From a virus (taxonomy: Duplodnaviria; Caudoviricetes), in the IMG/VR virus record IMGVR_UViG_3300028610_002065, positions 8,182 through 72,181 of that record: a stretch of DNA of 64,000 nt. One strand, written 5' to 3'. A program made the position numbers and the translations under genes. Below, one piece after another: positions 14,649-57,954 of this stretch (within the stretch, counting starts at the first letter, position 1; each line of letters opens with the position of its first letter). Below the pieces are notes generated by a model. The model was given only the letters and a program-made list of their open reading frames with translations, did no database searches and was not told the DNA's origin.

Positions 14649-14908
14649 TTATTTTTTCCCCCTAATACTAATTCCTTCGGGTCAAATAGAATTAGTTCTG
14701 TCGGCATACCACCCGAAGGTTCATCTTTTTCATCTTTTAGATTTTCCTCTGTTTTTCTTAAATGTGAAAGTGGACTAAGCGGATCACCCTTAGTTATACC
14801 CAATTTTCTTTTTTTTCTTTTAATAGAATGATCACGAAGAGTATCATTATAGAAATAGTCCATAGTAGAGGAAGTAGATGTTGAAGTTTCCCAACTAAAA
14901 GAACTCAT
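14645..14908 (-). CDS. Hypothetical protein
   Basis: 87 aa, ATGA overlaps on both sides. Confidence 0.55.
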   Translation of the reverse strand: MSSFSWETSTSTSSTMDYFYNDTLRDHSIKRKKRKLGITKGDPLSPLSHLRKTEENLKDEKDEPSGGMPTELILFDPKELVLGGKNK

Positions 14909-17904
14909 TTGTGATTAACCCCTATAACAGTTAGATAAGAGTTTAACAATTTTACTGATTCAGGTACCGTATTTAAATCTTTTGAATCTTCAATTAAATT
15001 TGATTCAATGAAGTTTCGTATATAGCTATTCTTTAAATCAATACAATCGGATTTGGTTGTCAAAAATTCAAATAGATTATGTGGAGCATCATGCCCAATT
15101 AGACATGCTGTTTCCATTTCGCCACATCTTTGACCGCCTTTGTTCTTCCGACCTCCGAGGGGTTGTAGAGTTCGTCTTGCATATGCTCCGATACCTCTGG
15201 CTGCTAATTTCTCTTCAGCAATATGAACCATTCTAAAGAAATAGATATATCCGACTGCAATTTCATTTTCTAATTTAACTTGAGATAAAGGATCAAAAAG
15301 CTCTGTTGTAAATGTTGCACCTGTGTAATCCATTGCTTTTTGTAGATCCTCTAATTTACAAGACTCGAACGGAGATTGAATAATTGTAAAGTCTTCTATA
15401 AACTCTTTGGTTATAATTTTTGGTAATGACTTTTCTAATTGGTCATAATACCATCCACCATCTGTCTTGTCAATAATTTTTATGAAATTTAAAAAGTATT
15501 TTTTAACTTCATCCTGATTGACTACCAGTTTTAGCATGTTGGTTTTCAATGCTTGAAGCGCAAATGCTAGATGCATTTCGTAGAGTTGACCAAAGTTCAT
15601 TCGGGAAATGATACCTAATGGATTTATACAAATGTCAAGATGTCTTCCATCGGGAAGCTGTGGCATTTTTTCATGAGGAACAATTCGAGAAATTACTCCT
15701 TTATTCCCATGCCTATTTGCAATCTTATCACCAACCTTAACTTTTCTAAAATGAACTCCAGCTATTTCTATTCTTACTCCATTAATTCTTTCACGTTTGC
15801 TTTTGTATTTACCGACAAACGAAAATTTATCAAGACCTCTATCTTTGATAAACTTTGCTGCCTTATCTTTTGATAAATGCCTTTTCATCACTTTTTGTAA
15901 ATCATTTTCTACATCTGATTGTTCTTGTAATTTTTTCTCTATCCATTCTTTATATTCCGGTACCTCTTCATTCCATTCGTTTGCATATATGTTAACTTCG
16001 GATATGATGAAGGTTTTTCTAGCAATCAATTCAATTGGTTCTGAAAATACTGAATAGAACTCATCTGAATTTAACTTCTTTAAAATTGCATATGGATTGC
16101 CTGCGTTAACAACGTCCAATACTTCTGGAAGTGGATCATATATGTCACCTTTTAATGAAAGTAGAACTTTATCCGGAGTTAATGAAAAGGATAAATCTTT
16201 GAAATGAACTGATGTTAGACTATCATCATTTACTAATCTGTCAGATATTACAATTCCATCTTCATAATTGTTGCCATAATAGATCATAACACCAGTTAAT
16301 AAATTTCGACCGATGTTGATTTTGCCATCTTTACAGAAGTTGCTTTCAGCTAAAACATCTCCTGTTTTAAATTTGTCTCCAGGTTTTACATAGATATTCA
16401 TAAAGTCAAGATGCTCAACATAAATTTTTCGATAACTAATATCAAAGATATCTGGTTCGCCATCTGTATATGCAACAATAATATAGTTTCGGTCTATAAA
16501 AATGACTTCGCCATCTTTCTTTGCTTGTTTAACAAATTGGGTATGTTGAGTAAACAACCCTTCACAACCTGAACTAATAAGCGGAACATCAAACTCTTTT
16601 AACATAATGGCCTGACGCATCTGTGATGATGCCATTTGTAATCTTGTCTGATCATCATGTTTTAAAAATGGAGTCATAGATACCGGAATAGAAATGGGTT
16701 GCTTCTCTGTAATCTCATCTGTGAACTTTAAATTTTCATCCAGAAAAACATTCGGAACAAGATTTTGTAATACTCCACAATTATCTCTATCAGGTGTATC
16801 AACTGGACAAATACGACCAAACATAGTTGGAGAGATGTCTCTTAAATGTTTTGGAATATTTTCTCTTTTGAATCCACCTGGTCCTAATAGGCTAGATCTG
16901 GAAAGTTTTGTTAATTCTTCAATTGGATTAATAGAAAAATCAAACTGAACAATATCAGATACATTACACTCTGATAAAATTTGAGTTGAATTGATATTGA
17001 ACTTTGGTTGTCTAGCTGTCCTATTTGAGAAGCATAAATCAAAAATGATCTTAGAGATTTTTGATACAACCATATATTCAAAACATCTTATCCTTTTATT
17101 AGTAAAAATAGTGTCGTCAATGGTTCTAATTTTTAAAGTTTCAATCAGTTCATCTAAAATCGAATTGGTTTCCAAAAACCTTGCTGTTAAAACATCAACT
17201 TTTGGGATAAGATCGAGAGCGTATAGAATATCTTCACCTTTTGACTTTTGATTGAAACGAGAATACGTTCGTCCTATTTCAACAATGAAATCATCTTGTG
17301 TATGTCCTATTGATTCATCATAATATGCTTTCAAATCTGCTCTTAGTGTTTCATATAGAAATCCTCTTGGATCTCTTAGATCAATCGTTTCATCAAGAAA
17401 GAAATCTTCATGAACTTTTTCTTTTCCATGGAACCCAAATAGAAGTAATGATAAGGGCACTTTTCTTCCCATAAAACTAACTTGAAGTCGAGGTATCTCT
17501 TTTTCTAAAGTCACAACTATTGTAGCGACATTAGTTCGGAGTTTAATACTTTCACCTCTCGTTACGACAGGTATATCAAACAATTGAAATAAAGGAATCT
17601 TTTTTCTGCCGTTTATGAATATATAATTTTCATCTATTAACTTTGGAATGTATATAGACAAGTCAATATTTGACTGCCCTTTTTGGAGTTTTATTGACAA
17701 GGTTTGTTTGAGAGTTCTTGACAATTCCCCCGATGAAAATCTCGACTCCTTTAAGTCGACTTCAAGGATTTGAAAACCAATCTCTTCGACTGGTTGTACA
17801 ATTTCTCTTACCAACGGTAAAATCTTTTCATAGTCTCTTTTTCGGATTGTGAAGATATTGTTTTCTTCACTCTGAATTTTGAATGTTGGGTTTATTATTT
17901 TCAA
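14905..17904 (-). CDS. rpoB: Multisubunit RNA polymerase beta-like subunit, set 1 (probable non-virion RNAP)
   Basis: GRICPVDTPD, HDDQTRLQMASSQMRQA, YNYEDGIV-like, GDKIANRHGNKGVI, GGQRCGEME; 999 aa, unsplit. Confidence 0.93.
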   Translation of the reverse strand: MKIINPTFKIQSEENNIFTIRKRDYEKILPLVREIVQPVEEIGFQILEVDLKESRFSSGELSRTLKQTLSIKLQKGQSNIDLSIYIPKLIDENYIFINGRKKIPLFQLFDIPVVTRGESIKLRTNVATIVVTLEKEIPRLQVSFMGRKVPLSLLLFGFHGKEKVHEDFFLDETIDLRDPRGFLYETLRADLKAYYDESIGHTQDDFIVEIGRTYSRFNQKSKGEDILYALDLIPKVDVLTARFLETNSILDELIETLKIRTIDDTIFTNKRIRCFEYMVVSKISKIIFDLCFSNRTARQPKFNINSTQILSECNVSDIVQFDFSINPIEELTKLSRSSLLGPGGFKRENIPKHLRDISPTMFGRICPVDTPDRDNCGVLQNLVPNVFLDENLKFTDEITEKQPISIPVSMTPFLKHDDQTRLQMASSQMRQAIMLKEFDVPLISSGCEGLFTQHTQFVKQAKKDGEVIFIDRNYIIVAYTDGEPDIFDISYRKIYVEHLDFMNIYVKPGDKFKTGDVLAESNFCKDGKINIGRNLLTGVMIYYGNNYEDGIVISDRLVNDDSLTSVHFKDLSFSLTPDKVLLSLKGDIYDPLPEVLDVVNAGNPYAILKKLNSDEFYSVFSEPIELIARKTFIISEVNIYANEWNEEVPEYKEWIEKKLQEQSDVENDLQKVMKRHLSKDKAAKFIKDRGLDKFSFVGKYKSKRERINGVRIEIAGVHFRKVKVGDKIANRHGNKGVISRIVPHEKMPQLPDGRHLDICINPLGIISRMNFGQLYEMHLAFALQALKTNMLKLVVNQDEVKKYFLNFIKIIDKTDGGWYYDQLEKSLPKIITKEFIEDFTIIQSPFESCKLEDLQKAMDYTGATFTTELFDPLSQVKLENEIAVGYIYFFRMVHIAEEKLAARGIGAYARRTLQPLGGRKNKGGQRCGEMETACLIGHDAPHNLFEFLTTKSDCIDLKNSYIRNFIESNLIEDSKDLNTVPESVKLLNSYLTVIGVNHK

Positions 17905-18085
17905 TATTGGTAGCCTCCAAGTAGTGATCTCTTATAAATTCAATTAGGTCTTTATCTTCCATATAGTACAGCTTATAATGCGGTATTGCATTTTCTATTA
18001 ATTGCCCCAAGCGGAGATCTGGAAATGAACCCCAAATGGTTTTTAATTCATTCAGGACTTCTGGAATTCTTTTGGGATCTCTCAT
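17867..18085 (-). CDS. Small conserved phage protein (DUF1040/YihD-like)
   Basis: MRDPKRI..VL..L..IW...PDLRLGQLI pattern. Confidence 0.6.
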   Translation of the reverse strand: MRDPKRIPEVLNELKTIWGSFPDLRLGQLIENAIPHYKLYYMEDKDLIEFIRDHYLEATNIENNKPNIQNSE

Positions 18086-18309
18086 TCTTTTGATTTCCTT
18101 TTAAACTTATAAAAGATTGAACCCATAACTCCCTCTTCAACTATAAATGATTTAACTTCATCTATAGTTTTTGCATCTTTGGGAAACACTTCAATAATAC
18201 ATTCCGCCATATTTGATAAATCCTCAGTTTTACTTTGGATCCATTCATTGTTTAAATCACCAAGGAATATATTAGTGAGAATTTTAGTTTCTAGTTCCTC
18301 AGAAGTCAT
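18082..18309 (-). CDS. Hypothetical protein
   Basis: 75 aa, ATGA overlaps. Confidence 0.55.
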   Translation of the reverse strand: MTSEELETKILTNIFLGDLNNEWIQSKTEDLSNMAECIIEVFPKDAKTIDEVKSFIVEEGVMGSIFYKFKRKSKE

Positions 18310-20966
18310 GTTATTCTTTCTCCCTTTAAGATTTTATCCATCACTCCGGAATATTTACCTTCGTATAATATTCCTTGAAGGATTGATCTTTTTGGATTTG
18401 AAAACGCCATAGCTAGAATCCAACTCTCTTGGTTTGGAGCAGATTGGATGCTATAATAATCTGGAGTAATTTTATCTCGGTTCTTTAACAGTCTCCACTT
18501 CCAATGGTTTTTCCACATGAGTTGAGCGACAACACATTCAAAGTGAACGTGATATATATCTTTATCATAAACATCGAACAATTCAGCAACTATATCAATG
18601 TATGTTTTTCTTTTAAATTTGTGTAGCAGTTCGGAAATAGATGCAAGATCTCCAATAATATCTTCTTGTTTCATTGAAGCATTATCTTCTTCTCCCTTTA
18701 TCATTGCTGAACCAGATGTATGAAATGTTCTTAAAACTAACTGGGTTCCTCTCTCACCAAGAGTTTGTGCTGCAATAATTCCAACGAATCTGCTATTTAA
18801 CTTTTTGTATAAATCACCATAACATCGACAACATACTTTTGGACTTTTACAAAGAATTGGACTTCGAATCATTATTTCTTTTCCAATTATATCTTTGAAG
18901 TTATCTTTAGTGATTTTGTATAAGGTTTTCTCATCTTCAGAAAGAGCGAATTTATTTATGAGCATTCTTGCTTTTCTTTCTGAAGTAACATCAACTGGTA
19001 ATAAATCAGTTGTGCCACAATCTTCTAATCCTTCATCAATTTGAAGATTGGCACATGTAAAAATTAATTTTCGTGAAAGATATCCTGAGGTGCCTGTGTT
19101 TAGTGCTATATCAAGTAATCCTTTTCTACAACCGTATGTTGAATAGAAAAACTCCTCTTGATTCAATCCTTCTAATAATGAATTTTTGATCGGATGTGGT
19201 AATATATGTCCATCAAAATTAGAGATGAATCCTCTTGAAAGAACTAACTGTCGAACTTGATCCCAGCTTCCTCTAGCTCCTGATTCAATCATATAAGAAT
19301 AAGAGAAATTTTTTCTCAGCATATTTGTAACTTCTGGGTTGGATAAAGATAATAATTGTTTTCTAGTTCCATCTTCAGAAAATATTTTTTCTTTGAGTTC
19401 AGTGATTCCATCTATACTGCACTCATTTAAAGATAATGTGCATCCTGATAAAGTTGCATACTTAAACCCCATCTTCTTAATATTATCTAAAATAATTGCC
19501 ACATCAGAATCCTTGTAAGCATCTTTAATTTCATTAAGAATTTCCAACAATTTCTTGTTGTCGATTGTTTCATTTACATCTGGATAATCATGTGGTAAAT
19601 AATTATTAAACTCTTCTCTTCCCCAATCAAATGATGTTGCATAATATATTCCTAGAATCACATCCTGACTTGGAATTGTTGTTAAACTCTCATTTGCAGG
19701 ACTATTTAGATTCTTTGTAACAAATATTTTTTCTCTTATCTCCTCTTTAGCTTCTTCAGTAATTGGTATATATACTGCCATTTGATCCCCATCAAAGTCT
19801 GCATTAAATGGTGGACATACTAAAGGATGAATCTTTATTACTTGATCTAATGTTACTTTAATATTAAAACCAAGCATCCCTAGTCTATGTAAAGATGGTT
19901 GCCTATTTAAGATGCAAACTTCATCCTTTGTTAGATCTTCACAGACCTTAAATAATACGGGAGATTGACTATCAATGCATTCATCAACAAAATCTATTGC
20001 TTTATTTAGGAGTTTGAATTTTCCTATTTCTATAATTCTTTTAGCAATAGGTAATTTGAAAATCTCAAGAACCATCAGATAAGGCAGTTTACATTGATCT
20101 AATCTAAGAGTTGGGTCTGGTGTAATAACAGCTCTACCGGAAAAATCAATTCTTTTTCCTAAAATGTTTCCTCTGATTAATCCTTCTTTTTTTGCCATTT
20201 TCTCAAGGATTCGATTATATAGTTCACTTATATCATTTTGTAATTGTTTGAAATAAGTGTAGTAAAGATTTTTATCTATCTGGATATTTATGATCGTATC
20301 TTTCATTGTCTCTTTCTTAGTGAGTATTTGAATATAATATCTATTGATTTTATCCATAAGATCTTTACCACTACCAGAACTTTTTGAAGTCGGTCTTAAG
20401 TCAGGTGGCAATACAATAATTTGGTTGATGATAAGACTGTCAAGATTGTCTTTAACTATTTGCCATTCTTTAATTCCTTCTGTAATCATATCAGCCGCCA
20501 AAGTTTCAACTAGAACATGAATGGCTTCAATTCGTTCCCATGTGTTAACTCCAGTTGGGATGCTTTCAGAATCAAGAGTTACAACCATCTCATTGTCAAT
20601 TAAATATAGAATGCTCTTATCATTTTTCATTAAATCATCAAGAGCACTCTTTAAACTACGACCACCTAGATCTACTAAGAGATCATAAAATATTGGATTG
20701 ACAACCGGAAGGGGTAATACAATTTTTGCGAATCTTTTTCTTCGCTCATCACTGTTTACAATATCAACTTTGCAATCATCGCATGTACCTCCGGATTTTG
20801 ATACTCCATGATATATACCACATTGGCATGTGTAATTTCTGACTGGCCCAAAGATTTGCTCTGAAAATAAACCTTTTGAGTGAAACTTCTTTTTTCCGAA
20901 TGTTTTTAAAGAGGTTACTTCCTCTAATGGTTCACAAAATTTATGATAATCTAAAATCTTTGGCAT
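18306..20966 (-). CDS. rpoC: Multisubunit RNA polymerase beta'-like subunit, set 1
   Basis: GLFSEQIFGP, CQCG..C.DC zinc finger, VLPPDLRP, LGKRIDFSGRAVI, NRQPSLH, catalytic FNADFDGD, TGTSGYLSRKL, TQLVLRTFHTSG; 886 aa. Confidence 0.95.
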   Translation of the reverse strand: MPKILDYHKFCEPLEEVTSLKTFGKKKFHSKGLFSEQIFGPVRNYTCQCGIYHGVSKSGGTCDDCKVDIVNSDERRKRFAKIVLPLPVVNPIFYDLLVDLGGRSLKSALDDLMKNDKSILYLIDNEMVVTLDSESIPTGVNTWERIEAIHVLVETLAADMITEGIKEWQIVKDNLDSLIINQIIVLPPDLRPTSKSSGSGKDLMDKINRYYIQILTKKETMKDTIINIQIDKNLYYTYFKQLQNDISELYNRILEKMAKKEGLIRGNILGKRIDFSGRAVITPDPTLRLDQCKLPYLMVLEIFKLPIAKRIIEIGKFKLLNKAIDFVDECIDSQSPVLFKVCEDLTKDEVCILNRQPSLHRLGMLGFNIKVTLDQVIKIHPLVCPPFNADFDGDQMAVYIPITEEAKEEIREKIFVTKNLNSPANESLTTIPSQDVILGIYYATSFDWGREEFNNYLPHDYPDVNETIDNKKLLEILNEIKDAYKDSDVAIILDNIKKMGFKYATLSGCTLSLNECSIDGITELKEKIFSEDGTRKQLLSLSNPEVTNMLRKNFSYSYMIESGARGSWDQVRQLVLSRGFISNFDGHILPHPIKNSLLEGLNQEEFFYSTYGCRKGLLDIALNTGTSGYLSRKLIFTCANLQIDEGLEDCGTTDLLPVDVTSERKARMLINKFALSEDEKTLYKITKDNFKDIIGKEIMIRSPILCKSPKVCCRCYGDLYKKLNSRFVGIIAAQTLGERGTQLVLRTFHTSGSAMIKGEEDNASMKQEDIIGDLASISELLHKFKRKTYIDIVAELFDVYDKDIYHVHFECVVAQLMWKNHWKWRLLKNRDKITPDYYSIQSAPNQESWILAMAFSNPKRSILQGILYEGKYSGVMDKILKGERIT

Positions 20967-20969
20967 AAG

Positions 20970-21203
20970 TTACTCCTCCGTTTTGAATGTTTCCATAAGA
21001 AATAAACCCATTGTAAAAAAGTGTTCCTTGACTTTTTTGGAAATCATTTTATCCAAGTCAGGCATCATCTCTTTTATAATGACTTGAACATCTTCAACTG
21101 CAAGATTAATCTCTCTTTCTTGAATAACTTTTTCAACTATCAGTTTGATATGATCTTCTAATGGTCTTATCTCATTTGCTTTTTTTAGTTTCTGACTTGA
21201 CAT
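20970..21203 (-). CDS. Hypothetical protein
   Basis: 77 aa, tiles with neighbours. Confidence 0.55.
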   Translation of the reverse strand: MSSQKLKKANEIRPLEDHIKLIVEKVIQEREINLAVEDVQVIIKEMMPDLDKMISKKVKEHFFTMGLFLMETFKTEE

Positions 21204-21429
21204 GTGTATTCACCTTCTTTTTGAGTTTGTTGCCATAAATATCAAGAAGTTCATCAACGTTTTGACTTCCTTGTTCCATTATTGCAGCAATTATTTTCTT
21301 AGAACTTTTCCTTACTACTTGAGTAAGACTGTCAATTGTTTCAGCAAGAATACCTTTCATTATGTTACGTGTTTTGTCTAGATTTTCCTTTGCCATTTTA
21401 CACCTCTTGTTTTCTATATTGAATTTCAT
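21172..21429 (-). CDS. Hypothetical protein
   Basis: 85 aa; true start probably MAKENL (GAGG RBS). Confidence 0.5.
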   Translation of the reverse strand: MKFNIENKRCKMAKENLDKTRNIMKGILAETIDSLTQVVRKSSKKIIAAIMEQGSQNVDELLDIYGNKLKKKVNTHVKSETKKSK

Positions 21430-21739
21430 TCCATGGGGTAAAGTAGCAATTATTCAAGTTGAATTGACTTAAAATTGTTTCGAGTAATTGTTGTGCATAA
21501 TGATTGAATGGCATTTTTCTTAGTTCATTTGGAATACAGAATTTACCACTGCTTGGTTGAGCATTTGGATGTTCTCCATTGATATGAACGTTATCTAGTT
21601 TGCCATCAATTATTGTAAGTTTATACCCTTTGATAAGATATTTACGTGGATACTTTATTATTCTGTAAACATCCCCGTTGTGAATGATTTTTTGTGGACT
21701 AATAAGGTTTTTAACTTCGACTTTTTTAAGATCCATCAT
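21398..21739 (-). CDS. Small E2/UBC-like protein
   Basis: GEHPNAQPSSGKFCI mirrors the E2 HPN...G.IC signature with a candidate catalytic Cys; ATGA overlap with the upstream ThiF gene. Confidence 0.5.
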   Translation of the reverse strand: MMDLKKVEVKNLISPQKIIHNGDVYRIIKYPRKYLIKGYKLTIIDGKLDNVHINGEHPNAQPSSGKFCIPNELRKMPFNHYAQQLLETILSQFNLNNCYFTPWNEIQYRKQEV

Positions 21740-22653
21740 GCTGCTCCTGTCTCTGGAATTAACTCAATTAAAATTTTATCATACTCTTTTGTACAAGACA
21801 CAACATAATTTTTAAAGTTACATGGTATTCTTGTTACAGAATCTAAATTTGTAATTAAATCATTTGCATTTTTTAAAAACCCCATCGGTATCACTGTTTG
21901 AGACATCGGCATAGATTTACTACCGACTATAACATTTAGATCATGCTTTTTATTTAAAGCAAGAATTGGAATAATTTTATCGGGAAGGTTAACGAATTTT
22001 TCATCTCCAGTATCATTTTCATATAAAACATCATATCGGCAGTTGTCAATCTTTTTTACATAATCTAACTCATATTTCTGTACTGACTTTAAATTAATTA
22101 ATGATTTAATTGTACCGCTATGTAAAATCATTGAAACTGTCATAGATGCATACCGTAGATCATCGCTTGTAAGAGTTTCTATATATCTACCATATAGCTG
22201 TTCTCGATAATGAACATTTTTTCTACAGTCAACAATAAGATATCTTGATGAAATATATAATCTACCATCAATATATGAGCCTCTGTTGTATGTGCTATCT
22301 CGACAATCAAGAACTAAATCTGTATTTGGCAAATATATATGATCTTTTGTTTCGTCAAATTTTATAGGAACTGTATCAACTTGAACGTTTGTAATTATAT
22401 CTTTTAATGCATCGACTTTTAATAGAGCAACGTCGATTTGCCTATATATTGAATTAGATAGATTTTTTACTTCAACTATATCGTGGTCTACAATAACTAA
22501 TTTCTCTAATCCTCCTAGATTAGAAACGGCTTCAGCAACGAAACCGCCCAATGTACCAACTCCAATTATTGTGACAGTTCGATATACCACGCTTATAGTT
22601 CTCCTTTCTTTATAGTGGGGGAGCGTGAACTCCCCCCCTGGCTGGCCTAGCAT
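21736..22653 (-). CDS. ThiF/E1-like adenylation enzyme (copy 2)
   Basis: VTIIGVGTLGG, IVDHDIVEVKNL, KVDAL, VLDCRD; true start likely the GTG of VVYRT after a GGAG RBS. Confidence 0.85.
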   Translation of the reverse strand: MLGQPGGEFTLPHYKERRTISVVYRTVTIIGVGTLGGFVAEAVSNLGGLEKLVIVDHDIVEVKNLSNSIYRQIDVALLKVDALKDIITNVQVDTVPIKFDETKDHIYLPNTDLVLDCRDSTYNRGSYIDGRLYISSRYLIVDCRKNVHYREQLYGRYIETLTSDDLRYASMTVSMILHSGTIKSLINLKSVQKYELDYVKKIDNCRYDVLYENDTGDEKFVNLPDKIIPILALNKKHDLNVIVGSKSMPMSQTVIPMGFLKNANDLITNLDSVTRIPCNFKNYVVSCTKEYDKILIELIPETGAA

Positions 22654-22656
22654 AAA

Positions 22657-23280
22657 TTATGCTGCTTCTGCTGACGCCTCTACTTTTACACTAGAGGCAC
22701 TTCGCTCCTTCAATAAAAGAGCTTCTTCTTGTCCTGCTGGGTTTGGCCGGTATTGTGATTTGTATTTATAAGTCTGATTGGCGATCTTTATCGGATAACT
22801 TAGAGGTAGCTGAAAAGCATATTTGGAGACACACTTTCCGTTACCATCAGATACTAAGATATCTATGGATGGATCAACCAATAAAATCTCTGGAATTTTA
22901 TCCTGAAATTCTGTATCATTATCCAGAGTTTTGCATTTAATCTCTCGCCTGACGGTTTCAAGATCTCTCCCAACTGGATTGATTTTGCCGTCATTTTCTT
23001 TTCGCATGAGAGCTTTCATTGCCCGACCGAAGGCTTTGTTCTTTCCCGCCTTCTTACAATAGACATCTTTAACTGAGCAGATCGAAACACCTCTTGCTTC
23101 AATCCGTCTCATTTCGCTGTTGATGAATAGGCATGTGGTGAATGCATTATTCAAGATCGGAGTGCTTCTATAATAAAAAGCAACTCTATCAACGCCATTT
23201 TGATCAAATATATTCTCGATATTTTTATCCATCGTCAAACCCCTTTGTTGGTGGGGGAGCCCCAATGGAGCTCCCACCAT
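22657..23280 (-). CDS. Hypothetical protein in ubiquitin-like cluster
   Basis: Likely start MDKNIEN; RGVSICS..D.YCKK.GK..A.GRA motif. Confidence 0.6.
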   Translation of the reverse strand: MVGAPLGLPHQQRGLTMDKNIENIFDQNGVDRVAFYYRSTPILNNAFTTCLFINSEMRRIEARGVSICSVKDVYCKKAGKNKAFGRAMKALMRKENDGKINPVGRDLETVRREIKCKTLDNDTEFQDKIPEILLVDPSIDILVSDGNGKCVSKYAFQLPLSYPIKIANQTYKYKSQYRPNPAGQEEALLLKERSASSVKVEASAEAA

Positions 23281-23285
23281 AGTTT

Positions 23286-23667
23286 CTATCCCTTACGACC
23301 GGCTGGTTTCAGGAATTCGAGACGGTCACCATTTTTCAGAACATAATTGGCATCCACCTCTTTACCATTGACGAGGCCAGTGGAAAGGCGATCCACATTC
23401 AGGACCTCTCTCAGGCCCGAACGGAGCGCTGGAGTTGCTCAGTACGGAGCTACCGGTAAAGTTAATACCTTGGAGGGGACCGGCGGCCTTTGCTTTAGGG
23501 GCCACAGACGTTCCGCCATCCTGATGTGCGATAATAGCATCAACCACAGCATCTTTCGCCAGTTTACTCAGACCGGAGATGCCGAGTTGTTGGAATGCCA
23601 TTTTCTTCAGACCTTTTGCTGTCATGCTATTCAGATCTTCACGTGAGTACACTTTTCTTCGTGCCAT
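23286..23667 (-). pseudogene. HeH/Rho_N-like + ubiquitin-like (beta-grasp) protein, frameshifted at ~23415
   Basis: Frame 1: MARRKVYSREDL...SSAPFG. The +1 frame continues LREVLNVDRLSTGLVNGKEVDANYVLKNGDRLEFLKPAGRKG-stop (23414-23286), a ThiS/MoaD/Ubl-type C-terminal half ending in Gly. Confidence 0.75.
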
Positions 23668-23681
23668 GTTACTAATTCTCC

Positions 23682-24371
23682 TTATGATGATTTTACGATT
23701 CTTGTTTGTGCATTTGCAGACAGTTGAAGAATATCAAAATATACCTCCGACTGTTGGTCGACCTGGCCCTTTACGATCGTTTTATAAAAGACCCAGCACA
23801 TGATGGTAGCTACCCCAAGATTTGTAAAATACAGTTGGGGTTCTGCTTGAGACAATTCTTCGCATGACATTTCTTCCGGTAACTGGTCTTCGGGATTGGC
23901 AATCTCAGGATGATATGCACAAAGATCCGGTGTTAAATCAATTCCTCCCCTCCGGACATAAACCTGCACATTACCATCTGTTAATTCGTTCCCACCAGAA
24001 ATAATTGTAACATCTCTCAATTGCATGCTGTAATTAGATATAATATTTCTGGTTTTGTGGTTGTCAACACAGATGAAGACTATGTCTCCTTCTCTGATAA
24101 CCTCCGCAACATTTGTTTCATTAATATATGCTTGAAACGAGTCAACTGGAACTTCGGGAAACTTCAACATAATTTCTGTAGCTTTCACATCCGCTTTGTT
24201 CCCGAATTGGTTAAACTCTTGCCGTTCATAGTTTTTTACTTCATAGTCGTCGCCATCTACTAAAAGGAGTTCCGCATCATAGTCTCTGCTATAATTAAGA
24301 AAGCGACATAGGCGTTCAATGAGAATACTGCCTACTCCACCTAGTCCTATAACTGTGATATTTAACTTCAC
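23682..24371 (-). CDS. ThiF/E1-like enzyme (copy 1)
   Basis: VIGLGGVGS, LVDGDDYEVKNYERQ, NKA, ICVDN..TR, ISGGNE, SCEE, QLYFTN. Confidence 0.9.
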   Translation of the reverse strand: MKLNITVIGLGGVGSILIERLCRFLNYSRDYDAELLLVDGDDYEVKNYERQEFNQFGNKADVKATEIMLKFPEVPVDSFQAYINETNVAEVIREGDIVFICVDNHKTRNIISNYSMQLRDVTIISGGNELTDGNVQVYVRRGGIDLTPDLCAYHPEIANPEDQLPEEMSCEELSQAEPQLYFTNLGVATIMCWVFYKTIVKGQVDQQSEVYFDILQLSANAQTRIVKSS

Positions 24372-26153
24372 TTACCCACCTCCACTTCCGAATACTCTTC
24401 TCATCATTTTCCTTAAAGAGTTATTGTGCTTATCTTCAGGACTTTGTGTTAAGAGAGGAATCTGTGGCTTCTGTGGATCTGGGAGCGGCTGTTTTTCTAA
24501 GGTTGAATCTTCTTCAGCTGCTGCCAGTAGTTCACCCGAATCCTTTTTGACAATCTTTTCGGATTCTATAGAAGTGCTGAATGGACTACAGTTGTAACCA
24601 TCCACCATGTATTCCCTACATTTAGGACAGGTTGCTACATCTCCTTCTGTTATAAATACGATCTTACATGATTTGCACTTATAAGACTGATTTGCTATAA
24701 GATTGCCCCCAGATTTGACTTCGATTTCTTCGTCTGACGTCGTGCCTGCTTCTGTTTTTCTATATTCGTTGAAATCGAGTTCCTCTTCGCAAAAAGGACA
24801 TGCATCTTCTCCTTTGTGGGTGAAGGTATTACCACATGTTGGACATACGAAATCATTCCCAATAACCGGATCCATAGGAGTTACATCAATTTTCTTCATA
24901 TCAATTTCATCCGGTGCTGGCTTTCCACATCCAGGGCAAATTGTTGATAAACCCAGATTAAATTTCAGATCACACTTATCACAAATTATATTGATTGATG
25001 TTTGACCTTTTTCAAACATATGATCATAGTTATCATCCAATACAAAGTTGTTGGTTTGTTCATCTTCATCGGGTCCGTCAACTTCTTCCGTATACTGTTC
25101 GATGGCCCAGTCGATTTTTTCATCCCTAAATAAACAGTTCTCACAGGGATTAAGATCTTCATCTTGATCATGGGGAGGAAATTCTATCCCAGCTGTTTTG
25201 TGTGGGCCAACATTTTGTGGAGGAATATGTTTACCTTGAACAACAGTCGGTGGAAGATTCTGCCTTCTCCACGGCTGACGATGTGCCCAACCCCAGGCAT
25301 CAGAGTCGTAATTGCCACCCCAACCTCGGTTGGCATATGCTCCATGACCATAAGCACGACCAAGACCAGCATAACTGTATGTTCCTTTTTCAACCACGTT
25401 CATCCATTTCTTATTGAAGCGTTTCTGGTGATCTGTTACTGTTACTGCATAGCGTTTATCATACTTTCGATGTGTGTATGAATACCGAGATGTTTGCTTC
25501 TCATCTTTGACGAGTTTTCCAGCCACATATTTATATACTGTCGTTGTCGCTTTTTGAACTTCCTCATCAATATCTTGGGTTAACTTTAGTTGTTCAACAT
25601 AGTCGTTTGGATTAACGATGATGCGATAACCATTGGCAACAATTGATGCTGAAATACTGATTTCTTCATCTCTCATGTTACCAAGGGTTATATGAAGTCC
25701 ATCAAAAGCTTCTTCATCTTTATCATCAGTTCCGGAGTGAAATGCCGACATTCCACCATGACTATGAATGGTTCCAATCATGGTTAATCCATCTATCGTT
25801 ATACCCCTATTGTAATCGCAAGCTCCACCGGTGACCTTCTGATGTGGGGGAATGATAGTATGGGTTTTCTTTTCTTCATTGTAGAACAGTAAAACAATTG
25901 CTTCAGCGTAATACTGATGATATACTGCTCTGAAGAACTCAATAACCTTCGCAAACTTTGGACCAGGGATTTTTGAAATTCTCATCCTGGCAGAAGCAGC
26001 AACACTTTCTAATGTTGAAATCTGATTGACTGGAGCAACACTATCCATGACTCCAATAGTTTTCTTCAAAAAGATTCCTTCTTTTGCTATAACATAATAA
26101 ACATCATCATCGGGCATTTGAGTTTGCCCGTCATTTACTACTACCTGGAACAT
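24372..26153 (-). CDS. JAB/MPN metalloprotease (PRTRC protein A-like) with C-terminal zinc ribbons
   Basis: EAIVLLFY...IGTIHSHGGMSAFHSGTDDKDE...GLHITLG; six CxxC pairs in the C-terminal half. Confidence 0.88.
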   Translation of the reverse strand: MFQVVVNDGQTQMPDDDVYYVIAKEGIFLKKTIGVMDSVAPVNQISTLESVAASARMRISKIPGPKFAKVIEFFRAVYHQYYAEAIVLLFYNEEKKTHTIIPPHQKVTGGACDYNRGITIDGLTMIGTIHSHGGMSAFHSGTDDKDEEAFDGLHITLGNMRDEEISISASIVANGYRIIVNPNDYVEQLKLTQDIDEEVQKATTTVYKYVAGKLVKDEKQTSRYSYTHRKYDKRYAVTVTDHQKRFNKKWMNVVEKGTYSYAGLGRAYGHGAYANRGWGGNYDSDAWGWAHRQPWRRQNLPPTVVQGKHIPPQNVGPHKTAGIEFPPHDQDEDLNPCENCLFRDEKIDWAIEQYTEEVDGPDEDEQTNNFVLDDNYDHMFEKGQTSINIICDKCDLKFNLGLSTICPGCGKPAPDEIDMKKIDVTPMDPVIGNDFVCPTCGNTFTHKGEDACPFCEEELDFNEYRKTEAGTTSDEEIEVKSGGNLIANQSYKCKSCKIVFITEGDVATCPKCREYMVDGYNCSPFSTSIESEKIVKKDSGELLAAAEEDSTLEKQPLPDPQKPQIPLLTQSPEDKHNNSLRKMMRRVFGSGGG

Positions 26154-28761
26154 TGATAAACCTCCCTGGTTCGTTTATAAAGTGATAGTTTGATTTTTCA
26201 CTGTAATGAAAAACACCATGAAAATTTGGATACCCCGGCAACATTCCTAGATCATCGCCTTGACTTCGTCTAATTCTTGGATTAGGAATACATTCATAAA
26301 TGTACTCCCTGGTAAATGTAGAATCCATTGGCCGTGTTTCTGGATAACCGCTATAATATTCCATATACTGAGCTCTAACCCCTCGATAATCCGGAAGATG
26401 GGTCACAAAATATCCCTCTGATGTTTTATAATTGGTTGTACCATTGATTAGATCTCCGGGTTGAGGTTTTATTTTGCTTAAATCAATTGGAGCATGTTTA
26501 AGGGTTGCCCATTTCTTTGCCCTCATAGTGACTCTGGTAAAATCTTTCATCATATCATCAAACCATATGGTCTGTCCATTTGAACAAAGAACTAATGGAT
26601 CTTTTCCACCAGTGTCTATTATAAAACCGACTATAATGTTTACACATTTTTTAGGAAAACCTGAATATCCAGATTCGTTAGCAATGATTTTAGTTCCAGC
26701 AGAAACTCGATTAAACACATTGGTTATTTTTCTTATTTTACCAATATTACAAAGTCCTAAATAACCATAAATGTATCTGATCTTTGATAAATTTCCATCT
26801 TTATCAGAAAGGATGAAATAAAGATCTTCACATGTCGACCTGCTCTCTCGTTCAACAATTGAGAACCCTGCAATCTCTTTAACCCTTAGAATATCATGTG
26901 GGTTTTTCCAGTCAGCTGTTACAACTTTATCTCCAACCCTAAACTCAAGGTCTAATAGAAAACCTGGAAGTTTGAATGTATCATTTTTGACTAGTTCAGA
27001 TATCATTCCATGTCTTGGACGACGAAGAGCGCAATTATTTTCATAAGCGAGAGCAGGTCCAGGAACTTCCCAAGCTAAAGTTTCTCGAGGTATTGCAGTT
27101 CCATCACTATTTGTGCTAATAAAATACATCTTTTTCCCTATTCGAAATAATCCGGGTAAAGGTTTTACATTACTTTCACGAAATAATCTTATACCAGATG
27201 AACTAGTTACTCCCTTTGTGCTCATCGGAAGACGATGGGTCACTCCACGTAGAGCACGGAAAGTATTTACAAACTCATATTCTACTTTCATTGATCCACT
27301 ACTAACTCGAACTCTTTTATAGTTCACTTTTGAAGCACACACCATAGGAGATGACCCTCTTGCATCTCTAATTAAAATATACGGTTCATCCTCTTTTAAT
27401 TCAATATTATAGACTGAAGGTTTTTCCATTTCGAATTTGGTAGCATTTATGTTTTCAGCTATATAATAGTCCCTACCAACTTTAAGTTCGGCTCTGCCAT
27501 CTCGTCCCACTCTAATAAAATCAACTGAACCATAATGTTCGCTACCGTCCTTATTAGTGAATATAAGGATATCTCCAGTTTTGACTTTGAGATTGTTATT
27601 TGGTAGAACCATTTCATTTGAATATCGGAGAGCTTTATTTGAGACAGCAATATAGTCTTTCACTTTCTTGGTAAGTTTCATCATAAACTTCTTACCATTC
27701 TTATCGACCATAACATATTTTAACTTACCACCATCTTGGAAACCTATAAATGAGTCGATGTATAATACGTCACCTCTTGAGTTAGTGAACGGATCTCCAA
27801 TACTTAGAAAATATTCTCCTACATATATACCGTTTGCAATATCATAAAATAATGGGAATTTCTTTCTCGATCTCGATGTTGGGAGAGCTTCCATATCAGT
27901 TCTTCCTGGAGCAAAAATGATTTCAGCTGCTCTTGAATAAGTCAATGATTTTTCTCCAATAACGTGAGCATCGTTTTTTACCTTTGTTAACCAGTGACCG
28001 ATATTACCATTTATTTCTATCCATTTGGCATCATAAATGAACAATGGATTTTGTGTTGTTAAGTACTCCCATCTAAGATAGTTCCCAAATTCAGATTCTT
28101 CTTTTCTATATGATTCATAGTTATAAGTATAGTCAGTATTGAAAACAGCTGACCAGAATACCATAATAACATTCTGAATTGTTTGGGTTAGAGAATGTGT
28201 CTCGAACTTATTTGCCTCGCCAAAGCAAACTCTTTGATTGCTAGAAATATTCAGAAGAGGAGCTTTAAGAAGATAATCTGACATCCCTCGCATTTCTTGA
28301 GTCCTTAAAAAGACCAGACCATCTACAAGATGTGTATCGTGTTCAATAAGTAGAATGAATATAACATATGGAAATGCTAAACTAAATGTTCTAGATGAGC
28401 CGCCAGATGCATCAAAATTCTTATATCCAAACTTTTCTAACACGTTTTCTTGTTTGAGTTGACTAACTTCAGATTCAAATCCCTTATGAATTTTTATAGT
28501 TCTGAGGGCTGGAGGTTCTTCAATCAATACCACATGACCTTTGTTAGTTTGTTCAATATATCTGCAATTAGGAGGCAGAATTCCAATATCTGAATGTCCG
28601 GATAGTTTTTTCATATAATCATTTGTGAAAAGAGTTCTTTTTACAATGATTGGTTTACCTTCATCCTTCATAGATCCAGCACCAGGTCCAGGAAATTCTG
28701 TTAATAGATATTGAGTATACTTAGGGTTAATCCTGATCTCTTGAATCAAATCGCTTTTCAT
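26131..28761 (-). CDS. Prokaryotic E2 family D (PRTRC protein B-like) N-terminal domain fused to a long beta-rich region
   Basis: IEEPPALRT..FSLAFPYVIF...LLKAPLLNISSNQRVCFG...FWSAVFN; ~600-aa uncharacterised C-terminus. Confidence 0.7.
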   Translation of the reverse strand: MKSDLIQEIRINPKYTQYLLTEFPGPGAGSMKDEGKPIIVKRTLFTNDYMKKLSGHSDIGILPPNCRYIEQTNKGHVVLIEEPPALRTIKIHKGFESEVSQLKQENVLEKFGYKNFDASGGSSRTFSLAFPYVIFILLIEHDTHLVDGLVFLRTQEMRGMSDYLLKAPLLNISSNQRVCFGEANKFETHSLTQTIQNVIMVFWSAVFNTDYTYNYESYRKEESEFGNYLRWEYLTTQNPLFIYDAKWIEINGNIGHWLTKVKNDAHVIGEKSLTYSRAAEIIFAPGRTDMEALPTSRSRKKFPLFYDIANGIYVGEYFLSIGDPFTNSRGDVLYIDSFIGFQDGGKLKYVMVDKNGKKFMMKLTKKVKDYIAVSNKALRYSNEMVLPNNNLKVKTGDILIFTNKDGSEHYGSVDFIRVGRDGRAELKVGRDYYIAENINATKFEMEKPSVYNIELKEDEPYILIRDARGSSPMVCASKVNYKRVRVSSGSMKVEYEFVNTFRALRGVTHRLPMSTKGVTSSSGIRLFRESNVKPLPGLFRIGKKMYFISTNSDGTAIPRETLAWEVPGPALAYENNCALRRPRHGMISELVKNDTFKLPGFLLDLEFRVGDKVVTADWKNPHDILRVKEIAGFSIVERESRSTCEDLYFILSDKDGNLSKIRYIYGYLGLCNIGKIRKITNVFNRVSAGTKIIANESGYSGFPKKCVNIIVGFIIDTGGKDPLVLCSNGQTIWFDDMMKDFTRVTMRAKKWATLKHAPIDLSKIKPQPGDLINGTTNYKTSEGYFVTHLPDYRGVRAQYMEYYSGYPETRPMDSTFTREYIYECIPNPRIRRSQGDDLGMLPGYPNFHGVFHYSEKSNYHFINEPGRFINVPGSSK

Positions 28762-29157
28762 TTATTCACCTCGTAAATATTTTACCTTCTTCGCAAATTC
28801 AGTCATGATTTTAATTGATCTGTGATCTTTAACCTCCCATACTCTTTGCCTTTTTGGAAGCAAAGCTTCATCGGGGTTTTTTGTGTCGATTTCCGTTAAT
28901 GGAAGAGTTGAGAAAATTATGAGATATGCTTCTTTTCCCTCTCTTTCTAAAGATATAAACCCGACTTCTTTTTTGTTTCTGCCTGGAACTTCCAGCGTTA
29001 ATAATGTATTTGGACCTTCTGAAAAATAATCCAAAATTCTTTTATCGAAATGAAAGTTATCACTTTCTTCTTCAATAATTTTAGTTGCAATCATATGAAG
29101 TTGTTCAATCAAATTATCTGACGGAAGCTCAGTTATAATGTCCTCTAAGATTCCCAT
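28762..29157 (-). CDS. Hypothetical protein
   Basis: 131 aa, GGAG RBS. Confidence 0.6.
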   Translation of the reverse strand: MGILEDIITELPSDNLIEQLHMIATKIIEEESDNFHFDKRILDYFSEGPNTLLTLEVPGRNKKEVGFISLEREGKEAYLIIFSTLPLTEIDTKNPDEALLPKRQRVWEVKDHRSIKIMTEFAKKVKYLRGE

Positions 29158-29168
29158 TTAATATCTCC

Positions 29169-29498
29169 TCATTGTGTTGGTTTTGCCCAGAATCTTCTAC
29201 CTCTTCGAGTTTCTAAATAATCAACCCTATCAAATGGGACTGATCTCCATCCAAGTTTCTCAAGATCATAAACATGCATAATCTTATTAACCTGAATCAA
29301 CTTTAATATTTTTTCAATATTAACTGATTTTGGATGATCCTCTTCTGGAATTTTTGTGAAGTCAAGAGTGCAACGCATGATTCTGTCCCGATTATCTTTT
29401 GTTACAAACTTTATTCTTACATCTTTTTCATCATAAATCTTTTTCCAAAATTGAACTGCGCTGACTATAATGTCAGAATCAATATCTCCACTAGCCAT
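29169..29498 (-). CDS. WYL_2/DUF2693-like SH3-fold protein
   Basis: VRIKFVTKD..DRIMRCTLD...VYDLEKLGWRSV pattern. Confidence 0.7.
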   Translation of the reverse strand: MASGDIDSDIIVSAVQFWKKIYDEKDVRIKFVTKDNRDRIMRCTLDFTKIPEEDHPKSVNIEKILKLIQVNKIMHVYDLEKLGWRSVPFDRVDYLETRRGRRFWAKPTQ

Positions 29499-30540
29499 GA
29501 GTATATCCCTCCCGTTTATCGAGATGTACTAAATCTTCTGGTCCTGTATCATTATCATTTATATACTTACTCATTAAATGACAAGTATGATTACATAACT
29601 TGCAGTACTCTTTTTTATCTCTTTTGATTGCAGCTTCTGCTATAAAATTTATACTACCAGCAGTCATAATCAAATTTTCAAGAGTTACTATTGATGGAGT
29701 ATGGACTCCTCTGATTCTTAAGCAAAGTCTAATTGAACCATCTGCATCAATTGAGATATTATGGAGGTCTTTATCAATTTCACAATTCATGTTTGATGGG
29801 AGTTTATCCCACATAGCTGGTATGAGTAATTTTTTCATATGAACATCTAAACTATCATCCTTCATAATTTTTTTAAATTGATCTGCTAGTTGTGCTGTTT
29901 GATGTACCAGAAGATTAAAATCTGTCATATTTGAAAAATCGTAATATGGAGTTTTCGCTATGTCAATAAAAGTGACATCTGCATTTATTTCATACTTACT
30001 TAGCTCTTTTAATAGATCATAAAGATATATGTAGTTATGTTTCATTGCAGTTATCTCGGCAACTACATCATCTACATATGCCTTTAGGTTAATTAAATTT
30101 TCTAAACCATGAATACTTTTTCGAACTCTGTCCTCTCCAGATTCTTTTTCATCATGGAACACTGGATCGACTGAAGCGGTGAACCCTTTTATTCGACCAT
30201 TAACTTTATCAAAAAGATTTTTAATTAATGGTCGAATCTCCTTTGTATTGTTGGAGATTATTGTATAGTGAATGTCTTCTCTATTACAATGATTGATAAT
30301 CTCATAAAGGTCTTTTCTTAATAAGGGTTCTCCGCCGTAGAATATATGAAACATATCCGGATTATGTAGTTTTAATTTATTCAAACCTTTGATAATATAT
30401 TTAGTTGACATTTCATTATTGTGATAATGTTTCATATCCGGATATTCTTCGGGTTTGTTTGGATAGTTTTTCACGATTGCACAATAATCACATTTGAGAT
30501 TACATCGTCTTGTCAACAACCAGTTTGCTATTCTAATCAT
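29491..30540 (-). CDS. Radical SAM protein
   Basis: CNLKCDYC, YGGEPLLR, ISN, C-terminal Cys cluster (CLRIR...CKLCNHTCH). Confidence 0.9.
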   Translation of the reverse strand: MIRIANWLLTRRCNLKCDYCAIVKNYPNKPEEYPDMKHYHNNEMSTKYIIKGLNKLKLHNPDMFHIFYGGEPLLRKDLYEIINHCNREDIHYTIISNNTKEIRPLIKNLFDKVNGRIKGFTASVDPVFHDEKESGEDRVRKSIHGLENLINLKAYVDDVVAEITAMKHNYIYLYDLLKELSKYEINADVTFIDIAKTPYYDFSNMTDFNLLVHQTAQLADQFKKIMKDDSLDVHMKKLLIPAMWDKLPSNMNCEIDKDLHNISIDADGSIRLCLRIRGVHTPSIVTLENLIMTAGSINFIAEAAIKRDKKEYCKLCNHTCHLMSKYINDNDTGPEDLVHLDKREGYTHG

Positions 30541-48587: not shown

Positions 48588-48794
48588 TTAATTTTCATCT
48601 TTAATCTCATATTTATCTCTGAGCTTTTTTGGTACCTTTATCCTACATAAGTTAGCAACTCGAATGAGCATTTCAGGAGTCGTATTTCTGAGAAATTCCT
48701 CGATCCTTCTCCTTAGCTTACGCATCATTAATTCATTCTGCTCAGTCATGAAAGTCTCCTCAAAGCACAAGGGAGAGATAGACAGGAGTTTCAT
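48588..48794 (-). CDS. Hypothetical protein
   Basis: Short basic protein, likely start MTEQ. Confidence 0.45.
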   Translation of the reverse strand: MKLLSISPLCFEETFMTEQNELMMRKLRRRIEEFLRNTTPEMLIRVANLCRIKVPKKLRDKYEIKDEN

Positions 48795-57953: not shown

Positions 57954-57954
57954 T

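Follow-up and report, generated by a model that had tools for sequence, protein, structure and literature searches.

Do the genes upstream of RNA polymerase in an uncultured jumbo phage encode a ubiquitin-like conjugation system that belongs to the virus itself? This question was raised by an initial annotation of the stretch analysed here (the window; 64,000 nucleotides [nt], positions 8,182 to 72,181 of IMG/VR record IMGVR_UViG_3300028610_002065). The annotation placed at 21398-28761 a run of genes for an E2-like fusion protein, a JAB isopeptidase, two E1/ThiF enzymes, a ubiquitin-like protein (Ubl), and a small second E2-like protein. These positions and the gene set were confirmed, the Ubl excepted; all of the genes are on the minus strand, and RNA polymerase beta' and beta genes follow the cluster. 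We consider it fairly probable that the cluster specifies a phage-encoded system for Ubl conjugation and deconjugation, because the domain assignments, the invariant catalytic residues, the trimmed-Gly pattern, and the strict conservation point to such a function. The proposed phage-side ubiquitylation cascade stands in that the cluster specifies an E1, E2, JAB, and Ubl whose catalytic motifs are preserved; it does not stand for this particular genome, in which the modifier gene is broken as assembled. The genes of the cluster are as follows.

28762 to 29157, minus strand: p131, 119-131 amino acids (aa) in relatives, directly upstream of the E2 fusion gene; C-terminus L-(R/K)-G plus 0-1 residue.
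26131 to 28761, minus strand: E2 fusion, 876 aa; N-terminal ~260 aa Prok-E2_D-like, remaining ~600 aa without a family.
24372 to 26153, minus strand: JAB/JAMM metalloprotease, 593 aa; JAB in the N-terminal ~180 aa, then zinc ribbons and a conserved C-terminal amphipathic helix.
23682 to 24371, minus strand: E1a, 229 aa; single-domain ThiF-type adenylating enzyme, PRTRC_ThiF-like.
23362 to 23667, minus strand: 5' part of the Ubl gene, an open reading frame (ORF) of 101 aa; HeH/SAP/Rho_N-like head and linker, then 17 out-of-frame codons.
23286 to 23438 including the stop, minus strand: Ubl gene, 3' remnant; +1 frame, no start codon; specifies the C-terminal 42-50 residues of a ThiS-like beta-grasp with the end PAGRKG.
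22657 to 23280, minus strand: p207, 207 aa; optional insert without a family assignment.
21736 to 22653, minus strand: E1b, 283 aa, ThiF-type; the start used by relatives corresponds to the GTG at 22590.
21398 to 21739, minus strand: p113, 113 aa; UBC-like 'mini-E2' with HPN (57-59) and Cys68.

Neighbouring genes either abut or overlap: 23 nt are shared by the E2 fusion and JAB genes, and 4 nt by the E1b and p113 genes. Sigma-70 promoters and terminators were not found above chance within the cluster.

Profile searches for ThiF, Prok-E2_D, and Prok-JAB, which the initial annotation had proposed as a check, were run against Pfam and NCBIfam, and all three families reached the Pfam cut-offs, Prok-E2_D barely. 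E1a matches ThiF (PF00899) at an E value of 5e-19 (68.8 bits, cut-off 28.1) and TIGR03736 at 3e-10, while E1b matches PF00899 at 1.7e-12 (47.4 bits, same cut-off). The motifs GLGGxGS, RQEF, and VDNHKxR and a Cys in MSCEE are invariant in E1a. E1b keeps GxGTLGG, NSIYRQ, and DCRDxTYxR; in its alignment, the Cys of the DCRD nucleotide motif is the sole invariant one. The two enzymes are 26% identical over the Rossmann core and are, therefore, old paralogues.

The N-terminal ~125 aa of E1b form an E1 Rossmann domain in an AlphaFold 2 (AF2) model, for which the mean predicted local distance difference test (pLDDT) score is 60 overall. In VIA, the model matched UBA5 with a Z score of 10.9 and a root-mean-square deviation (rmsd) of 2.1 over 98 residues, the fold searches covering residues 1-130 only. 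Other structural neighbours are Uba1, Cap2, MccB, MoeB, PaaA, and AclA. The C-terminal ~80 aa are predicted to fold as helix, strand, strand, helix, strand, strand (pLDDT 57-85); hhalign found no similarity between this domain and the Ubl domain. It could be a UFD-like domain that recruits an E2. The last nine codons of E1b (21736-21765; ELIPETGAA in the window) are near-invariant across 59 sequences while overall identity falls to ~40%. The pattern [IVL]E[LI][IL][PE][ED]TGAA was present in 55 of the 59, and the rest end in TGGS, MGGS, or FGGA. The tail of E1b could serve as an E1 substrate, even of E1b itself, in the way that Cap2 uses the C-terminus of a CD-NTase, or it could be a docking peptide.

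The E2 fusion matches Prok-E2_D (PF14460) with 25.5 bits against a cut-off of 25 and PRTRC_B weakly. Prok-E2_D was found in 10 of 11 members of the family, with a best E value of 1.2e-6. Cys179 (RVCFGE in the window) is invariant, in the context NISxxQxxCxG[DE] followed by FWxxxFNxD. No invariant His was present between Cys179 and residue 756 in the 11 aligned E2 fusions, and the C-terminal ~600 aa gave no match in the PDB, Pfam, or the Atlas. The metalloprotease matches Prok-JAB (PF14464) with 26.3 bits (cut-off 25) and TIGR03735 (PRTRC_A) at 3e-11, and contains zinc ribbons. The JAMM motifs, E..HSH..SAFHSGxD, are invariant in 11 sequences, while the number of CxxC pairs (the zinc ribbons) varies. 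The protein ends in GSGGG in the window. We rejected this end as a Ubl-like tail, as relatives end otherwise after the conserved MFKRVF helix.

The smallest of the enzymes, p113, yielded an AF2 model with a pLDDT of 92.7 from an alignment of 12 sequences. The model contains five strands, the HPN motif, Cys68, a short helix, and a long helix. HPN with a Cys eight residues on was found in 54 of 54 members from the phage lineage and in 139 of 149 distant members. The initial annotation had named the absence of a catalytic Cys from the E2-like homologues as a result that would speak against it; this Cys is retained in p113, as Cys179 is in the E2 fusion. In 49 diverse members that are 22-36% identical to the window protein, only P15, H57, P58, N59, and C68 are invariant. 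The top rows of a Foldseek search were almost all UBC E2 enzymes, at E values of 0.2-1. The best match in VIA was 1yrv, with a Z score of 4.9, which is low by the guidance of the tool, and an rmsd of 3.8 over 88 residues; ~26 of the first 30 rows were E2, UEV, or RWD proteins, including BubB (Z 3.6) and I215L of African swine fever virus (ASFV). Among PDB profiles, the sole UBC-related match was to an E2, with the alignment falling exactly on HPN..C (E 1 and 0.33), and a formylmethanofuran dehydrogenase subunit matched slightly better than the E2 when a broader p113 profile was used (E 0.08). Pfam UQ_con was found in 3 of 12 members with a best E value of 0.055, which is not significant, and none of the 12 matched a Prok-E2 family. 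We conclude with moderate confidence, from the predicted model, that p113 is a UBC-like enzyme without helix 1 and the C-terminal helices, and catalysis by this protein would depend on its Cys. The claim that a second ThiF stands beside a small UBC-like protein is retained for the adjacency and the HPN..C motif; the E2 identity is weak by score.

The p113 family is a large one. In 1.84 billion proteins, 229 clusters at 50% identity were found at E values of up to 0.001, and none of the ten clusters checked contained a Pfam family above its cut-off. Some of the metagenome proteins (P0167, P0207, P0238, and P0249) carry tandem duplications or long extensions. The Cys is lost in some copies, such as P0213 and the first repeat of P0167, which suggests that these sequences are inactive, UEV-like derivatives. 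Look-ups of distant relatives returned no IMG/VR locus in three of four cases.

The modifier itself required closer attention. The initial annotation described a Ubl ending in GRKG; in the window, this end belongs to a remnant in another frame and without a start codon. The listed 101-aa ORF encodes the head through ...SAPFG, then 17 unrelated residues and a stop, and ...LEFLKPAGRKG* sits in the +1 frame. The closest relative found is IMG/VR contig 3300033144_004982 (L001/L002), in which the E2 fusion is 65% identical and a single intact gene encodes a Ubl of 157 aa. In a DNA alignment with L001, the window lacks 92 nt between bases 23415 and 23414. Lost with these 92 nt are the codons for ...QKTTTTIHVSCGASSGSFPVQGKTVREVGEF..., which make up the initial strands of the beta-grasp and a portion of its helix; the deletion thereby takes the first half of this domain and shifts the frame. 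A programmed frameshift that rescues the Ubl was ruled out because 31 beta-grasp residues are physically missing. Therefore, the system as assembled has no modifier in this genome.

Compared with L001, the 42 codons of the surviving 3' half show 14 synonymous changes and only 2 non-synonymous ones; purifying selection, therefore, acted on it during nearly all of the divergence between the two. Either the deletion arose very recently or it was introduced by assembly, and the broken gene is accordingly either a natural knock-out variant or an assembly error. An exact match to the 24-nt deletion junction was not found in other contigs of the metagenome and viral contig collections.

The Ubl gene is intact in all 90 relatives in which it is complete and encodes ~155 aa (153-162 aa in ten full-length sequences that were aligned). 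The intact protein is predicted to consist of a HeH/SAP/Rho_N-like head, a linker, and a ThiS-like C-terminal domain that ends in Gly. The head matched Rho_N in 7 of 11 relatives, SAP in 3, and DEK_C in 1, and the window ORF gave weak matches to Rho_N and DEK_C. The C-terminal domain matched TGS in 11 of 11 (best 5.9e-5), ThiS in 8, and Ub-Mut7C in 6, all below the Pfam cut-offs; these are all beta-grasp families. The 3' remnant in the window showed a weak match to moaD_arch in NCBIfam (0.018). The C-terminal Gly is conserved in 79 of 79 complete metagenome genes with 0-1 residue after it: the protein ends in P[AS]G[RK]KG in 45, and in the same motif plus one residue in the other 34 (Cys in 31, Phe in 2, and Asn in 1). 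The Ubls of Bil systems have a conserved Gly and a few further residues, and are trimmed to the Gly by a JAB protease (PMC10557695). The end of the phage Ubl parallels this pattern and may be processed similarly. Judging from its domain matches, the head would add a probable nucleic-acid-binding module to a target or steer tagging to DNA- or RNA-bound proteins.

A similar end was observed in p131, for which no Pfam, NCBIfam, or PHROG family was found. It terminates in [FYM]L[RK]G. Most sequences carry one further residue there, mostly Glu, and those of a subclade stop at the Gly; this arrangement of a Gly plus 0-1 residue is the same as in the Ubl. As a lead only, p131 may be a second E1 substrate or conjugatable protein, or its tail may be a docking peptide.

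Relatives were gathered by searching IMG/VR and metagenome contigs with E1b and with an alignment of the Ubl. This recovered 14 loci in IMG/VR (11 distinct contigs after deduplication) and 80 metagenome loci, the latter out of 123 relatives found. Three further IMG/VR contigs were recovered; L102 and L108 are among the most distant relatives found. The gene order is fixed wherever the contig suffices (~100 loci): radical SAM, p109, p131, E2 fusion, JAB, E1a, Ubl, (p207), E1b, p113, (small ORFs), beta', and beta. Since this order recurs across loci, a chance arrangement was excluded. p131 was found in every locus that extends far enough. The sole variable member is p207, which is absent from many relatives. 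No family was found for p207 or p109, and the Atlas offered only weak leads from p207 to phage hypothetical proteins.

The identity of the cluster to the window declines in step with that of RNA polymerase, with beta' down to 58%. In L108, identities to the window are 58% for beta', 51% for E1a, 39% for E1b, 39% for the Ubl, 34% for p113, and 24% for the E2 fusion. The catalytic residues are invariant in relatives with protein identity to the window of down to 24-50%, depending on the protein. Because identity declines in step with RNA polymerase, the sequence comparisons indicate that the cluster has been passed on vertically as a core block and is not a mobile island; the uncultured jumbo-phage lineage to which it belongs has contigs of up to 310 kb. 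No relatives of E1b or p113 were found in 185,579 GTDB species genomes, and tblastn revealed no counterparts of the E2 fusion, E1b, or p113 in GenBank phage records.

The host of the cluster was correctly identified as a phage. The window is part of a jumbo-phage-type genome that encodes a T4-type terminase, topoisomerase II subunits, SbcCD, a helicase, and a methylase, and all genes of the 64 kb are on the minus strand. Megablast did not detect a near relative among GenBank phage records. Two sets of unsplit RNA polymerase beta'/beta genes are present, both on the minus strand, at 14905-20966 (886 and 999 aa) and 53874-60969 (1004 and 1359 aa). The subunits of RNA polymerase are split in the classical phiKZ- and AR9-type jumbo phages. 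The features that follow the cluster are given below.

21172 to 21429 and 20970 to 21203, minus strand: two small ORFs between p113 and RNA polymerase beta'.
18306 to 20966, minus strand: RNA polymerase beta'-like, 886 aa; Rpb1 domains 1-5 (Pfam).
14905 to 17904, minus strand: RNA polymerase beta-like, 999 aa; Rpb2 domains 3, 6, and 7.

The G+C content is 31-33% across most of the window and 40% at 22-26 kb, which contains the JAB, E1a, Ubl, and p207 genes. A second, similar rise was noted at 44-52 kb. This block contains a DUF2201 protein (VWA-like and putative metallopeptidase domains; 44327-45571, minus strand) and an ARPP-1 domain protein (48760-49722, minus strand), both of families that are typical of conflict systems. 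Upstream of the E2 fusion, at a constant distance of three genes, lies a gene for a radical SAM enzyme (29491-30540, minus strand). Over its full length, this enzyme weakly matched SPASM/PapB-type peptide maturases, and its N-terminal part gave weak matches to prokaryotic viperin. The invariant VSCGASSG loop of the Ubl could in principle be a substrate of the radical SAM enzyme.

We propose the following pathway. The JAB/JAMM protease would trim the extra residue after the terminal Gly of the Ubl, where one is present, and a ThiF-type E1 would then adenylate the Gly. E1a is the likelier Ubl-adenylating E1 because it is the neighbour of PRTRC type and its Cys is invariant. An invariant Cys would next accept the Ubl, that in the Prok-E2_D domain of the E2 fusion and/or that in p113, the presumed partner of E1b. 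From there, the Ubl would be attached to a lysine of a target protein, and the JAB protease would reverse the modification. The two E1/E2 tiers of the initial annotation derive from gene adjacency only. In an extended form of the proposal, one branch (E1a and the E2_D fusion) and another (E1b and p113) together place the HeH-Ubl on phage or host proteins at the DNA, such as the neighbouring RNA polymerase, and might attach further proteins with Gly-type tails in the same way, namely p131 (ending in LRG(E)) and E1b itself (ending in TGAA); the lineage depends on the system, and p113 is a new virus-borne relative of E2 enzymes. We regard this extended form as tentative and somewhat unlikely in its full detail. 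If true, it would represent a virus-owned, ubiquitin-style regulatory layer in bacterial infection.

Several observations weigh against a conjugation system. The Ubl gene is broken in this genome. The match of the E2 fusion to Prok-E2_D is barely at the cut-off, and the His that defines the E2-like proteins of operon class 6d is not conserved. The match of p113 to E2 enzymes is weak (Z 4.9, Foldseek E 0.2-1, and UQ_con at best 0.055). E1b may form no thioester, given that its only invariant Cys lies in the nucleotide motif. Furthermore, the whole region is syntenic in the lineage, so that adjacency weighs less than it would in a mobile operon.

These weaknesses leave room for other explanations. 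The proteins may function in sulfur transfer or another adenylation-based biosynthesis, in which a ThiS/MoaD-like protein is thiocarboxylated by ThiF after JAB trimming, as in CysO/Mec+ and QbsE/QbsD, and thio-modifies a nucleotide, cofactor, or peptide, perhaps with a radical SAM/SPASM enzyme. The Ubl is indeed ThiS/MoaD/TGS-like, and a single extra C-terminal residue together with a JAB protease is also known in sulfur-carrier systems, QbsE/QbsD being an example. The relevant operon classes are set out in PMC1779556. Enzymes that adenylate peptides (MccB, PaaA, and AclA) are among the best structural neighbours of E1b, and a radical SAM/SPASM gene is located three genes upstream of the E2 fusion; however, the latter is uninformative because the whole region is syntenic. 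Moreover, two E2-like proteins with an invariant Cys have no role in sulfur transfer, a sulfur carrier does not need a HeH/SAP-type head, and searches of Pfam and NCBIfam found no rhodanese, cysteine desulfurase, or sulfur-acceptor enzyme among the cluster proteins. We consider a sulfur-carrier function to be quite unlikely. A different arrangement was also considered, in which E1a and E1b form one heterodimeric E1, similar to SAE1/UBA2 and APPBP1/UBA3, with p113 as the E2 and the E2_D fusion as an E3-like or substrate-selecting factor, that is, one cascade instead of two tiers. In favor of this arrangement, the cluster encodes a single clear Ubl, and the distantly paralogous E1a and E1b always occur together; an invariant Cys is present in E1a and not in E1b, while an extra C-terminal domain is present in E1b. 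However, both carry complete nucleotide-binding motifs, whereas one subunit is degenerate in the eukaryotic heterodimers, and the bacterial ThiF and MoeB enzymes are homodimers. A heterodimeric E1 is, thus, judged to be unlikely.

The third explanation concerns targets and is compatible with the chemistry of the proposed conjugation system. The cluster may serve mainly in counter-defence: the JAB protease may strip host conjugates of the Bil or CBASS type, and/or the E1 and E2 enzymes may divert or mis-tag host defence proteins, as the characterised bacterial E1/E2/JAB/Ubl systems act in phage-host conflict (PMC10097602, PMC10557695, and PMC11601596). However, anti-defence genes are usually patchy accessories, whereas this cluster is a fixed core block that has diverged in step with RNA polymerase, and no known anti-defence protein was found to resemble its products. 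A fixed core block fits a role in the life cycle of the phage itself better than it fits a swappable anti-defence accessory. We consider a mainly counter-defence function to be very unlikely. Conjugation and deconjugation of the Ubl by a phage-encoded system remain the reading that we favor.

How does this system compare with those already described? Its closest counterpart is operon class 6d, which combines a Ubl, JAB, E1-like, and E2-like protein (Iyer, Burroughs and Aravind 2006, PMC1779556) and is the same as the PRTRC cassette; the E2 fusion, JAB, E1a, and Ubl genes are the counterparts of this class. A Ubl with a terminal Gly, a JAB protease, a single-domain ThiF E1, and a family-D E2-like protein are common to both. 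The nearest NCBIfam models (the TIGR03735-03737 set) for three of the cluster proteins are PRTRC_A, PRTRC_B, and PRTRC_ThiF. However, scores of 43.2, 18.5, and 39.9 bits are far from the respective equivalog cut-offs of 101.8, 131.45, and 144.75. In the E2-like proteins of class 6d, a His that follows the catalytic Cys is absolutely conserved (PMC1779556); this conserved His is missing in the E2 fusion. No ParB family was identified in a search limited to the cluster proteins and their immediate neighbours. The cluster also differs in that its E2 domain is fused to ~600 residues, its JAB protein has zinc ribbons, and its Ubl has a HeH/SAP head. Furthermore, it is carried by a lytic-type jumbo phage and not by a plasmid or integrative and conjugative element, and it additionally has a second ThiF and a UBC-like mini-E2. 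Because of the scores below cut-off, the lack of conservation of the His, and the lack of a ParB-type gene in the cluster, we file the cluster as related to PRTRC/class 6d and not as a member.

The Bil and Bub systems share the logic of an E1, an E2, a JAB-type trimming or deconjugating enzyme, and a Ubl (PMC10557695, PMC11601596, and PMC11601603). Their Ubls carry, behind a conserved Gly, a few residues that a protease removes, a step that we infer for the phage cluster, and some of these Ubls have extra N-terminal domains. BubB was among the structural neighbours of p113 (Z 3.6). In contrast, the Bil E1 is multidomain, with inactive and active adenylation domains and a Cys domain, whereas E1a (229 aa) and E1b (283 aa) have one adenylation domain each. 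Bub uses oxyesters and a serine protease. Both Bil and Bub are owned by the host and the present cluster by the phage. Among UBC E2 enzymes (UQ_con; ASFV I215L), p113 is similar in its HPN motif and Cys, in the beta-meander of four to five strands before them, and in the helix after them. However, it has only 113 residues, lacks helix 1 and the C-terminal helices, and is linked to these enzymes by E values of 0.055-0.33 and Z scores of less than 5.

A simpler set appears to exist in other phages. ThiF genes that are 27-36% identical to E1a are present in the Bacillus phages vB_BceM_WH1, KLEB27-3, and Edson and in the Salmonella phage Arash. A JAB gene stands beside the ThiF gene in WH1 and Arash, where the JAB query also matched. 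WH1 gp214, just upstream, aligned with the E2_D region (hhalign probability 80%, E 1.5e-5) and contains the motifs PxNxxxxxxICxGD and FNxD, while the Arash counterpart aligned unconvincingly (probability 6%). These alignments suggest that a trio of E2_D-like, JAB, and ThiF genes exists in a culturable jumbo phage (WH1 gp214-216). Nevertheless, this trio differs from the cluster: identity is low (27-30%), the genes are annotated as hypothetical, ThiF, or structural, and tblastn found no long E2 fusion, E1b, or p113 there, the HeH-Ubl having been left out of the search. In Arash (OQ632216.1, 176281-179301), the ThiF-like gp246c and gp248c, upstream of JAB, are annotated in GenBank as 'structural protein', which hints that such enzymes may be packaged in virions. 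We found no functional study of the WH1-type genes in the literature, and a comparative review of jumbo phages (PMC7824862) does not mention a Ubl, JAB, or ThiF system. Three ThiF/E1-like genes have been reported in an Asgard-archaeal virus (preprint 10.1101/2021.07.29.454249).

Prokaryotic Ubl conjugation has hitherto been encountered as a weapon of the host against phages (CBASS Cap2/Cap3, Bil, and Bub) or, unexplained, on plasmids (PRTRC). A literature search found no counterpart of the second E1 with an HPN-type mini-E2 in any described prokaryotic operon. The second E1, the minimal HPN-type E2 family (at least 229 clusters), and the tag with a DNA-binding-type head are, thus, extras that none of the described systems possesses. 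If the cluster is active, phages own a post-translational tagging system and the study of E2 evolution gains a new data point. What distinguishes it from its relatives on plasmids and in hosts is that a virus owns the full enzyme set, as a fixed part of the core genome throughout a jumbo-phage lineage.

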